Origin: Candidatus Woesearchaeota archaeon
GTDB taxonomy: Archaea; Nanobdellota; Nanobdellia; Pacearchaeales; GW2011-AR1
Assembly: GCA_964495875.1 (NCBI GenBank)
Contig: CAZBWB010000001.1
Coordinates: 10,269 to 74,268, forward strand
Direction: 5' to 3'
Length of the DNA stretch: 64,000 bases
Shown: one piece after another, positions 15,284 through 62,933 of the stretch
How the letters are laid out: the number at the start of each line of letters is the position of its first letter
Numbering within the stretch: the stretch's first letter is position 1
Notes under the pieces: generated by a model
Told to the model about the DNA's origin: nothing
Database searches by the model: none
Seen by the model: only the letters and a program-made list of their open reading frames with translations
Position numbers and translations under genes: made by a program

Positions 15284-15422
15284 CGCCCTGGACAGGAATC
15301 GAACCTGCGGGCCCCGAAGGGCGTGGATGTTTGCTCCTTCTCTTTTAAGGGAGGTTGACGGTCAAGGAACCGTAGGTGCCTTACCTTAGCAATCCACTGC
15401 AATACCACTATGCGACCAGGGC
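15284..15422 (-). tRNA. tRNA-Ser(GCU) with a ~58-nt intron at canonical position 37/38
   Basis: Acceptor GCCCTGG/CCAGGGC+G. Anticodon arm GTGGA-TTGCTA..A-TCCAC. Long variable arm GCCCTTCGGGGCC. T-arm GCAGG-TTCGATT-CCTGT. The intron 3' end AGCAA pairs with the anticodon loop, as in a bulge-helix-bulge (BHB) splice motif. Confidence 0.85.
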
Positions 15423-15482: not shown

Positions 15483-15683
15483 TAGCGGGGATAGGATTTG
15501 AACCTATGACCTCCGGGTTTCCCATGCAACTTCCATCAGAGGCAATTTAAGAAGTTGCCTATCCGCATCGGAAGGAGGTTGACTGTCAAGGAACCTTGGT
15601 CCTTTACATTATGGGCCCGACGAGCACTCCAGATTGAGCTCCATCAAATCTTTTATAACTTGACGAATCTGCTCCACCCCGCT
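15483..15683 (-). tRNA. Initiator tRNA-Met(CAU) with two introns (D-loop ~34 nt; anticodon loop ~89 nt)
   Basis: AGCGGGG...CCCCGCT+A (A1:U72). Three G:C pairs closing the anticodon stem (GGG/CCC), anticodon CAT, T-arm ATAGG-TTCAAAT-CCTAT. The intron 3' end ATGGG pairs with CCCAT. Confidence 0.8.
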
Positions 15684-22489: not shown

Positions 22490-23620
22490 TCAAAAACTAA
22501 TCAACTTAACTTTTGTATCAGTTGTTGCAAAATTCTTTGCCACAATGACAGAACAGCCAGCTTCTCCTGCATTTTTTATTGCAGAATTTGTTGCAATACC
22601 ATCAATTATTATTGCAAAAGCTTTTTCATTTATTCTCTTCAATGTGTTGCTTAAATTTCTCACAGGGATTTTTTTAATTTCATTTAAAGAAGCATTCAAA
22701 AGGACAGCTTTTCCTGAACCTTTATTTTTTTTGAAAATTTCCTGAAGTTTTTCTTTGTTTAATCTTACATCTTTTTTGGAAGAAGAGGAGCTCTTTTTGA
22801 ACCCCTCTCTTGATAAAAATTCTTCAGCAGATATTTTCTTTCTCAAAGCCATGAAAATTTCTTTTCCGGTAAGTTCTTCAACTTCTTTTCCGTCAGGTGC
22901 TCTTGCAATATAAGAAATCTTTACATTATCAACGACATTCTGGGCAATCAGTTTTCCGCCCCTGTCACCATCAATAAACAGAGTAATTTCTTTTTCTTCA
23001 TTTAATTTTTTTATTTCATCAGGAAGTTTTGTTCCATTCATTCCGATTACATTATTAACACCATTTTTGATTAAATTTAAAACATCTGCCCGTCCTTCAA
23101 CAACAACAATCTCCTTGCCTGATAAATCTCCGCATGGAAGTTTGCTTTCTCCATATTCCTGAATTCCGGCCATTCTTGAAGCACTCTTAATTTCCTCAGA
23201 AATTTCTCTGGAACTTGTTGAACCCTGAATTTCTCGCATTAATTTTTTAGCCCTCTCAATAATGTAGTCTCTCTTGCCTCCACGGACATCTTCAATTCTT
23301 TCAACTTCAATTTGAGAATCACACGGACCTATTCTTTCAATTGTCTCTATTGCTGCTCCAATCAAAGTAGTTTCTGACTGGTCTAATGCAGTGGGAATTT
23401 TGATAACACCAATAGTTCTTTTGTTTTCCCTGTGTAAATCAACTTCTATTCTGCCTATTTTTCCTTCTTTTTGCAATTCCCTCATTTCCAAATCTGCCCC
23501 TAAAAGTCCCTCTGTTTGTCCAAAAATAGCTCCGATTACATCGGGCTTTTCCGGTGCACCTTCGGCTACGAAATTTGCATGTATCATGTATTTTATCGAT
23601 ACTGGACTTATTTTTGCCAT
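22490..23620 (-). CDS. dnaG: Archaeal DnaG-type primase (TOPRIM)
   Basis: N-terminus KYMIHANFVAEG..VIGAIFGQTEGLLG. TOPRIM VVVEGRADVLNL ... FIDGDRGG. Confidence 0.85.
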   Translation of the reverse strand: MAKISPVSIKYMIHANFVAEGAPEKPDVIGAIFGQTEGLLGADLEMRELQKEGKIGRIEVDLHRENKRTIGVIKIPTALDQSETTLIGAAIETIERIGPCDSQIEVERIEDVRGGKRDYIIERAKKLMREIQGSTSSREISEEIKSASRMAGIQEYGESKLPCGDLSGKEIVVVEGRADVLNLIKNGVNNVIGMNGTKLPDEIKKLNEEKEITLFIDGDRGGKLIAQNVVDNVKISYIARAPDGKEVEELTGKEIFMALRKKISAEEFLSREGFKKSSSSSKKDVRLNKEKLQEIFKKNKGSGKAVLLNASLNEIKKIPVRNLSNTLKRINEKAFAIIIDGIATNSAIKNAGEAGCSVIVAKNFATTDTKVKLISF

Positions 23621-23719
23621 TATTTTTTATTCTCCAATTTAATTAATTGAAACCATAATGATTTCACATAGAAAAATATCTTTTACAATTTCTTTCTCAC
23701 TACTTCAAATGAAGATAAC

Positions 23720-23760
23720 GTAAGACACCCACGGTTTCTTGACGTTCAACTTCCCTTAAA
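23720..23760 (+). repeat. Free-standing copy of the tRNA-intron core element
   Basis: GTAAGACACCCACGGTTTCTTGACGTTCAACTTCCCTTAAA matches the 5' part of the tRNA-Ser(GCU) intron (30/36 over the core). It lies on the opposite strand to the tRNA genes, and no tRNA exon sequence flanks it. Confidence 0.45.
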
Positions 23761-23844
23761 TTTGACTCAAGGTTGATTGAATGTGATCGTGATTAATGAT
23801 AATCGTGATATTCTTCTAATGAATATCCATACAAAAAGAAGTTT

Positions 23845-24168
23845 TTAAAGTTTTGGGCTAAAAAACATCATCTTAATTCCCTTGGGATAAATATCTTCAA
23901 GAGAGGTTCTTAATTTTTCCATTGTTTCAGGATCAATGTCATCGTCCACAGCAACAAAGCAATCTGCAAATTCTTCTAATCTTCCGCAAATTCCCCAAAC
24001 ATTAACTCTGTATAATGAACCTTTTTTATCATAACATTCTATAATCCTTATGTCTTTTCCATTTATCGACTTATTGCAGTATAATATTTTGCTTCTGTCT
24101 TTGTTAATTTTTCTGAAATTTTTTGGAATAAAAATAGGATTCATTTTTACTAAATGTAAAAAGGACAA
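23845..24168 (-). CDS. Hypothetical protein
   Basis: 107-aa ORF (the start may be the internal MNPIF); no motif recognised. Confidence 0.4.
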   Translation of the reverse strand: MSFLHLVKMNPIFIPKNFRKINKDRSKILYCNKSINGKDIRIIECYDKKGSLYRVNVWGICGRLEEFADCFVAVDDDIDPETMEKLRTSLEDIYPKGIKMMFFSPKL

Positions 24169-40221: not shown

Positions 40222-40335
40222 TGGCCCCGGAGGGATTTGAACCCCCGACACCTGGATATCTTCGCGTATTTACGAACCTTATCATATTCGCAACGCGTAA
40301 AAGTCCAGTGCTCTGCCAGACTGAGCTACGGAGCC
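40222..40335 (-). tRNA. tRNA-Lys(UUU) with a ~40-nt intron at 37/38
   Basis: GGCTCCG-TA-GCTC-AGTCTGGCA-GAGC-A-CTGGA-CTTTTA[intron]A-TCCAG-...GGGGG-TTCAAAT-CCCTC-CGGGGCC-A. The intron has a CGCGT/ACGCG stem. Confidence 0.85.
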
Positions 40336-62768: not shown

Positions 62769-62933
62769 GGTGGAAGGAGAGAATCGAACTCTCGTTTTGC
62801 GGATTTTGCTAGCAATTTCACATAACACAAAATCCGTAAACTGCTCCTGACCTCGCTCAAAGTCAAGGGCAACCGGAAGTTTCGCGAAATCACTCGCCAC
62901 AACCACACGTTCTGCCATTAAACTACATCCACC
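62769..62933 (-). tRNA. tRNA-His(GUG) with genomically encoded G-1 and a ~93-nt intron
   Basis: G(-1)GTGGATG-TA-GTTT-AATGGCA-GAAC-G-TGTGG-TTGTGG[intron]..CCGCA-AAAC-GAGAG-TTCGATT-CTCTC-CTTCCAC-C. G-1 sits opposite C73. Confidence 0.8.

Follow-up and report, generated by a model that had tools for sequence, protein, structure and literature searches.

Here we asked why a piece of a tRNA intron should stand outside any tRNA gene, in the opposite orientation, in the spacer upstream of the primase gene dnaG, and whether such a copy is better understood as a mobile or as a functional unit. The locus lies in a window of 64,000 nucleotides, by which we mean the whole stretch of DNA analysed, belonging to a genome (hereafter G000) of 632 kb and 32% GC that is assembled in five contigs and is 88% complete; the proteins of its relatives carry the Pacearchaeota label in public records. 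The gene dnaG (22490..23620, minus strand) encodes an archaeal primase-type Toprim protein of 376 aa (Pfam Toprim_4, Toprim_2 and Toprim), with orthologues detected in 39 of 41 relatives, the closest DnaG among 5.8 billion proteins being only 77% identical. It is preceded by an unannotatable ORF of 107 aa (23845-24168, minus strand), and the coordinates agree with the spacer of 224 nt originally described between these two minus-strand genes. The 41-mer at 23720-23760 of the plus strand occurs once in the window and aligns without gaps to the first 41 nt of the tRNA-Ser(GCU) intron (15345-15385, minus strand), with 35 of 41 positions identical (blastn, 85.4%). The original prediction had put this match at 30 of 36 positions, so that the similarity held and the measured value was slightly better. 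Searches with the family profile (nhmmer, E = 1.6e-13) and with the family covariance model (E = 3.7e-16) show the match to be real, and chance had rightly been thought an improbable source of it, as 0 of 100 shuffles of the window contained a match to the 41-mer at three or fewer mismatches. The flanks are as devoid of tRNA-like sequence as had been claimed: ARAGORN, Rfam at its gathering threshold and Rfam at E ≤ 1 found no tRNA and no other meaningful RNA family in 23560-23900, and across the whole window Rfam at the gathering score returned tRNA matches only.

Similarity to other members of the family continues past the 41-mer as far as 23776, so the unit is one of 57 nt rather than 41, and 23720..23776 (plus strand) is a complete long-form copy of a dispersed hairpin element by its matches to the family profile. 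The sense strand of the element, defined as the one it shows in tRNA introns, is the plus strand at this site, and the copy is therefore antisense to dnaG. It opens with stem 1, a hairpin of 8 bp with a loop of 3 nt and one conserved internal mismatch (23722-23729 with 23733-23740, plus strand), which is defined by covariation. In an alignment of 30 copies, 91% of the stem-1 cells were paired, compensatory changes occurred at two pairs (GC in 17 and AU in 12 copies at one, CG in 24 and AU in 5 at the other) and the observed covariation score was reached by none of 500 shuffles; the conserved internal position is mismatched whichever strand is read, and an asymmetry of G-U against A-C pairs gives no hint of which strand is the functional RNA. 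Next come the half-sites TTGA and TCAA around a free centre of 3 nt (23739..23749, without assigned strand), where conservation within the family is highest. All four TTGA/TCAA pairs are standard in the 30 copies (30/30), three being invariant and one having a single GU variant, the centre varies over six triplets in the same alignment, and the half-site changes seen in later copies, in the larger census of 97, are one-sided and uncompensated. The TTGA-N3-TCAA pattern suggests recognition of a sequence, not of a helix. A pyrimidine tail (23750..23757, plus strand) covaries with the 3' arm of stem 1, which it mirrors with length and sequence changing together (78 of 92 copies being mirror-consistent), and this mirror repeat could correspond to a short triplex or to plain linkage within subfamilies. 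The long-form tail (23758..23776, plus strand) holds a second quasi-palindrome of the TTGA..TCAA type at 23762-23770 and has kindred tails in other genomes (G001, G118, G165, G166 and the copy in the L18e leader of G004). In the family at large some copies continue with such a tail of about 19 nt and its second TTGA..TCAA-like site, and others with a second hairpin module. Terminal inverted repeats were not found in the 30-copy alignment, where the ends of the element are not complementary and the only hairpins are internal ones. The second module has a stem of 8 bp with compensatory differences between copies and a conserved loop of about 15 nt; it is found alongside the element in a number of introns and of tRNA and gene leaders, its sites including the iMet intron, G000:C1:240898-240911, G000:C2:47705-47718 and the loci L104, L105, L107 and L123.

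Genome-wide searches showed that the sequence before dnaG is not a lone orphan. A profile built from five copies identified ten clear copies and one weak copy in G000, and the covariance model identified 12, so that the dnaG copy is one of about 12. Four of them lie on the tRNA strand at the very 5' end of introns in tRNA-Ser(GCU), tRNA-Asp, tRNA-Leu(UAA) and the initiator tRNA (iMet), the intron position 37/38 being called by ARAGORN and Rfam. Sequence comparison and the profile place two of these in the window, one in tRNA-Ser(GCU) (copy 15343..15385 in gene 15284-15422, minus strand) and one in iMet (copy 15572..15607 in gene ~15483-15683, minus strand), the latter gene being detected only by intron-aware ARAGORN, which mislabelled it as Gly. 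Five further copies are reverse-complemented, with their last base touching the ATG of a protein gene (an L18e-like gene, the RFC small subunit gene, a KH-domain gene, an Mre11-like gene and an ORF of more than 500 aa), and the weak copy stops 2 nt before tRNA-Arg(CCU). The closest relatives of the dnaG copy in G000 are those preceding the KH-domain gene (92%) and the L18e-like gene (90%); its nearest kin thus abut start codons and the tRNA-intron copies are more distant, and it is itself the only copy in the genome to end about 100 nt from its downstream ATG. The RFC copy is identical to the tRNA-Ser(GCU) intron core at 41 of 41 positions, which points to recent copying within G000. Many tRNA genes of this genome bear introns. 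The window has five tRNA genes, all on the minus strand, and tRNA calls give long introns to three of them, Ser(GCU) at 15284-15422, Lys(UUU) at 40222-40335 and His(GUG) at 62769-62932. The last, which has G-1, C73 and an intron of about 93 nt, is a tRNA-His(GUG) and not an initiator tRNA; its intron resembles the element only faintly, as judged by eye.

The age of the dnaG copy was examined by comparing the regions upstream of dnaG in 30 genomes, G000 and 29 relatives. A family match was present in G000 only and absent from 29 of 29 relatives, so that the copy is not conserved. In an alignment of these regions from 12 genomes the leaders of the 11 relatives lack the element, and the 57 nt at 23720-23776, long-form tail included, separate in G000 two blocks that are contiguous in the relatives, whose empty site is clean and holds no tRNA remnant. 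No clear target duplication was seen at this site in the alignment. The predicted leader of dnaG is about 200 nt long in G000 against about 145 nt in the relatives. As predicted from the same alignment, it spans 23621..23821 (minus strand), with conserved blocks at ~23777-23822 and 23649-23680 and a conserved motif before the ATG of dnaG, and it is preceded by a TATA-like box (23842..23849, minus strand) that overlaps the stop codon of the 107-aa ORF and is conserved in the genus and most of the family. The copy is a lineage-specific insertion, and probably a harmless one. The leader that received it is conserved, at about 145 nt, in the genus and much of the family, in an otherwise mostly leaderless genome. 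One of its two conserved blocks contains a small hairpin, the leader has no Rfam match, and it may have a regulatory role at the primase gene that is so far undescribed.

Two scenarios had been offered for the strand on which the copy is transcribed. Applying the genome-wide TATA-to-ATG distance of about 28 nt, we infer that the dnaG transcript begins near 23821 and that the insert occupies about +45 to +101 of a 5' UTR of about 200 nt. Because the copy would thus lie some 45-100 nt beyond the point at which the conserved dnaG promoter is predicted to start transcription, transcription together with dnaG is the likelier scenario; for the other, an independent plus-strand transcript, no TATA-like motif was found at a distance that would start transcription at the element. 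The copy is most likely co-transcribed as part of the dnaG leader. Read as minus-strand RNA, the insert is able to fold into stem 1 and one more small hairpin, stem 1 appearing in the folds of either strand, with energies in single-sequence folding (z-scores from -0.9 to -1.4) that are within about 1.4 sd of shuffled sequences, and no ATG follows the GGTG-like motif of this copy. It is most likely a neutral passenger in the 5' UTR, with no required function. A simple scan scored 23733-23719 (minus strand), where the stem of the element is followed by a T-rich run, as terminator-like, and found two such sites in the 500-nt region of the dnaG leader against 0.3 expected.

Filled and empty sites within the genus are not confined to dnaG, the RFC, KH-domain and L18e-like leaders being likewise element-free in same-genus genomes. 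In the case of RFC, three same-genus genomes are leaderless, with the TATA about 28 nt before the ATG, and G000 retains this TATA together with an ATG at the ancestral spacing, followed by an insert of 58 nt and then the real ATG. In the case of the KH-domain gene, the aIF1A stop codon abuts its ATG in three same-genus genomes, and in G000 the two are separated by a spacer of 150 nt. Read in reverse complement, this spacer is a unit of two modules similar to an entire iMet-type intron, the second hairpin module of the iMet intron recurring in it. The conserved leader of the L18e-like gene is broken just before the ATG in G000 by an antisense element, and at the same spot G004 has a degenerate copy in the opposite, sense orientation; the leader of this gene, outside the window at G000:C1:388764-388870, is conserved in the genus and looks structured. 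The tRNA genes offer the same type of comparison, tRNA-Ser(GCU) being intron-less in G001, G002, G003 and G006 and its neighbour iMet in G001 and G002, and a genome of another family (G055) has a tRNA-Ser(GCU) intron almost identical to that of G000. From these comparisons it appears more parsimonious that the element was gained or copied along the G000 lineage, and the presence of introns in G000 and their absence in the sisters could reflect loss in the sisters instead. Taking the filled and empty sites together with the dispersal of copies over tRNA introns and non-tRNA sites, the core behaves as an independent unit, as had been proposed.

Examination of the junctions showed direct repeats of very different lengths, ranging from 0 to 16 nt (3-4, 7-10, 14 and 14-16 nt at different copies). 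The tRNA-leader copies of G001, G012, G093, G124, G145 and G176 are flanked by repeats of 14-16 nt corresponding to about -2 to +14 of the tRNA, and the duplicate begins at about the transcription start. The order in these leaders is a 14-16-nt duplicate of the 5' end of the tRNA, the element in sense orientation, an inverted duplicate and the intact tRNA, a layout seen in other genomes at L011, L079, L123, L104, L105, L095, L004 and L010. In G113 an insert of 47 nt lies between direct repeats of 14 nt that begin with ATG, and elsewhere the junction repeats are only ATG or ATGG. A second ATG stands at the far end of 15 of 26 start-codon copies against a background of 35% (p = 0.014); with such modest support, duplication of the start codon was not retained as a general rule, and the RFC and G113 cases are individually clear. 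Overall, the junction repeats seem to begin at the transcription start and to vary in length.

The family is widespread and patchy within one taxonomic family. The covariance model gave 171 matches in 55 of 151 genera of the family to which G000 belongs, with 1-19 copies per genome and a single detectable copy in 22 of the 55 family-bearing genomes, and no match in 133 genomes from other families of the class. Outside its own family the element is present in one neighbouring family of the order (G055). A short sequence pattern matched 7 of 61 relatives, and no exact match to it was found in a collection of viral contigs. We classified by setting 97 distinct copies from about 45 genomes. In 32 the element occupies 37/38 tRNA introns on the tRNA strand, and in one such an intron on the opposite strand; about 12 flank or immediately precede a tRNA gene and share its strand, and four adjoin the 5' end of tRNA-His. 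Reverse-complemented copies ending on the ATG of an ORF number 24, about 14, the dnaG copy included, lie upstream of ORFs at 9-230 nt, and about 10 have other settings. The intron copies span more than 15 tRNA identities across genomes, and the host genes of the start-codon copies vary by genome (S3Ae, L10e, PheT, RFC, L18e-like, KH-domain, aIF1A and Mre11-like), many of the ATG-abutted ORFs of other genomes having orthologues in G000.

Why so many copies end exactly on a start codon may be related to the way in which genes begin in this genome. TATA-like hexamers in G000 peak sharply at -29 to -27 from the ATG and 45% of crude ORFs are of the leaderless type by a simple hexamer list, on which basis most G000 genes appear to be leaderless; a Shine-Dalgarno signal at -14 to -10 is weak genome-wide. 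The motif GGTG or a similar one stands at -12 to -8 in 20 of 24 start-codon copies against 7 of 32 intron copies (copies that are not independent of each other), the 3' end of the 16S rRNA reads ...CACCTCCT, and the short frame that opens at the old ATG stops at -13 or just past the real ATG. The transcript of a gene with a start-codon copy would begin with the old ATG, the ribosome would read the short frame and would restart at the real ATG, and the reverse strand of the element would aid this restart by supplying a GGTG Shine-Dalgarno-like motif 8-12 nt before it. We infer this Shine-Dalgarno role from motif position. The element was also considered as a core promoter and rejected, since its palindrome, and not a TATA, lies at -31 to -21 before the abutted ATG; its AT-rich edge falls at -38 to -50, compared with the genomic TATA peak at -29 to -27.

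Searching G000 for a protein that might move the element gave little. No Y1 transposase (PF01797) was found in this genome, 88% complete as it is, the control genomes giving matches; TnpB (PF07282) stayed below the cut-off, Cas1 (PF01867) was not found, and the only tyrosine recombinase is Xer-like (PF00589). LAGLIDADG domains were found within inteins, and two free-standing ORFs next to tRNA genes also carry them (G000:C1:398066-398248 and G000:C1:230784-231041, in frames of 298 and 238 aa), the neighbours being the weak copy before tRNA-Arg(CCU) and an intron-bearing tRNA-Glu(CUC); no link between these free-standing ORFs and the element was found. The lack of terminal inverted repeats together with direct repeats of 0-16 nt does not agree with any standard chemistry of transposition.

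Family membership, the distribution of the copies and the comparisons of filled and empty sites are observations, and the explanation that best accommodates them is that of a non-autonomous mobile element surviving where RNA processing or translation makes it harmless. In such an explanation, 23720-23776 is one full copy of a dispersed hairpin element that is short (~41-57 nt), encodes no protein and has spread at the DNA level within one family-level group of Pacearchaeota-type DPANN archaea, to which it is restricted (with G055 in another family), and copies would persist only where the cell neutralises them. Those in tRNA genes would be removed as the 5' part of an intron spliced by the endonuclease and those in tRNA 5' leaders would be removed by RNase P, whose RNA is present in G000 so that element-bearing leaders can be removed; those in protein genes would be tolerated just downstream of the transcription start of mostly leaderless genes. 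The dnaG copy would have entered the unusually long conserved dnaG leader in the G000 lineage, where it would form one or two small hairpins. We consider it probable that both parts of this account hold, a mobile hairpin element in general and, at dnaG, a co-transcribed passenger without required function. Of the alternatives left by the original prediction, a unit either mobile or functional, mobility is supported and a function as a regulatory RNA is not, a pairing partner lacking in many genomes and the copy not being conserved.

Other explanations of the same sequence have to be weighed against a mobile element. If the leaders of dnaG, RFC and other genes paired with pre-tRNAs or with excised, possibly circular, introns, the element would act as an antisense regulator through which genes of replication and translation are linked to the processing of tRNAs. 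When the dnaG leader is paired with the Ser(GCU) intron, the predicted intermolecular gain is large (-32.9 kcal/mol against -4.0 ± 2.3 with shuffled partners), and for the RFC leader with the same intron it is larger (-57.7 kcal/mol). The RFC copy is fully identical to the intron core, and in start-codon copies the pairing would extend over both the start codon and the Shine-Dalgarno-like motif. The duplex that had been proposed between the minus-strand transcript and pre-tRNAs is thus predicted to form, but a regulatory role does not follow from it, because shared ancestry accounts for the complementarity of the dnaG copy to the tRNA introns. Moreover, the genomes with a single detectable copy (22 of 55) offer it no partner, G008 (61% complete) has four start-codon copies and no intron copy that could be found, leader-type and intron-type copies form separate subfamilies across genera without co-evolution within genomes, and the dnaG copy is missing from the 29 relatives; we regard this reading as quite improbable. 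A DNA-level role has somewhat more in its favour and is nevertheless unlikely. TTGA-N3-TCAA, present twice in the long form, would in that case be the operator of a dimeric protein and the element a portable cassette placing tRNA and information-processing genes under common control. Half-sites without covariation around a free centre are the signature of a protein site rather than of an RNA helix, and near-identity across genera with invariant TTGA/TCAA could reflect a conserved function such as protein binding instead of recent movement. The site falls shortly after the points at which transcription is predicted to start, the host genes belong mostly to replication and translation, and a palindrome, being independent of orientation, would account for the presence of the element at tRNA genes and protein genes alike. 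Against this, the gene sets vary between genomes, and in a DPANN genome of 0.6 Mb most genes are of these kinds in any case; a palindromic operator would need neither the strong bias in orientation nor the covariation of stem 1, one-sided half-site changes are common among intron copies, no candidate regulator was identified, and the position of the palindrome does not suit a core promoter.

Two further readings concern the dnaG copy alone. Its hairpins might have been exapted in this lineage to serve the leader for attenuation, for stability or as an additional promoter, with which the hairpin and T-rich run called at 23733-23719 (minus strand), the TATA-like stretch that borders the insert on the dnaG-proximal strand and the otherwise conserved leader, suggestive of regulation of dnaG through it, would be consistent. 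An insert found in one genome only, with unremarkable folding energies and, unlike the start-codon copies, without an ATG after its GGTG-like motif, makes such exaptation improbable. The chance that the match is fortuitous, a decayed tRNA relic or an integration (att) site is negligible: AT-rich flanks and 6 differences from the Ser intron core in 41 positions could be cited for it, but profile E-values of 1e-13 to 1e-16, flanks without tRNA-like sequence and clean empty sites in the relatives' leaders rule out a relic or an att site at dnaG. A mobile hairpin element remains the reading that we prefer.

Placing this element among known systems shows partial likeness to several of them. In Thermoproteales, tRNA introns transpose between tRNA genes, with gain at the DNA level by a mechanism described as unknown (Fujishima et al. 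2010, as presented in PMC4090602), and these intron families served as positive control in a recent preprint (bioRxiv 10.64898/2026.10.13.758758). As far as they are described in that review, the families resemble ours in having closely similar intron sequences in tRNAs of different identity (in G000, Ser(GCU), Asp, Leu(UAA) and iMet) and in lineage-specific gain, the Ser(GCU) and iMet genes of sister genomes being intron-less, with loss in the sisters as the alternative. Going by the same account, they differ in that the repeated unit is here only the 5' 41-57 nt of the intron and not the whole of it, that roughly every second copy is located in gene or tRNA leaders and so outside the coding sequence of tRNAs, mostly in reverse orientation, that the host is a DPANN archaeon and that sister genomes here supply the empty sites. 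The dnaG copy differs from any member of a bulge-helix-bulge (BHB) intron family in lying outside all tRNA genes, none being present in 23560-23900. MITEs, REP/REPIN sequences and PATE elements derived from IS200/IS605 are likewise small multi-copy sequences that lack genes, contain conserved hairpins, are patchily distributed and differ in their insertions between close relatives; the present element, however, has no terminal inverted repeats, no apparent target duplication of fixed length and no Y1 (RAYT/TnpA) or TnpB partner in G000, and its copies lie precisely at transcription-start-proximal positions and tRNA splice sites. Disruption of tRNA genes in Caldiarchaeum has been modelled on integrative elements that leave duplicated tRNA fragments (PMC3293823). 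The tRNA-leader copies recall them by the 14-16-nt repeats of the tRNA's own 5' end, which resemble duplications of the att type, but the insert is 70-110 nt long and does not encode a recombinase, each repeat begins where transcription starts, and repeats of this tRNA-derived type are absent from the dnaG copy. Insertions of yeast Ty3-type retroelements cluster within a few nucleotides of the transcription starts of tRNA and other genes; having no reverse transcriptase, integrase or LTR, our element resembles them in position only.

The mechanism of tRNA intron transposition has been called unknown in a review (PMC4090602), and no general route of arrival was found for the tRNA introns of Asgard archaea (2026 preprint, 10.64898/2026.10.13.758758). 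A limited literature search found no paper describing copies of an intron core at gene leaders. This analysis contributes the empty-site comparison at dnaG, the element's long form, its leaderless setting, the repeats at its junctions and the intron-less tRNA genes of sister genomes. The dnaG copy carries little functional weight, and its value is that it cleanly documents an insertion away from both tRNA genes and start codons. The family as a whole illustrates one route by which archaea can gain tRNA introns, and because a short recognisable unit is found inside and outside tRNA genes, with empty sites in the same genus, donors, targets and junctions can be compared directly. Landing at the start of a leaderless gene keeps the old promoter and the first ATG, and the insert would supply a ribosome-binding motif, which bears on the origin of archaeal 5' UTRs. 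More tentatively, and with doubts that outweigh our expectations, the element may be an active protein-less unit that a host factor recognising TTGA-N3-TCAA moves to the starts of transcription units and to sites competent for tRNA splicing, creating introns de novo and converting leaderless genes to a short upstream frame followed by a Shine-Dalgarno-led restart. If this were true, the targeted element would be a direct source, and one that can be traced, from which archaea obtain tRNA introns and a leaderless genome its 5' UTRs.
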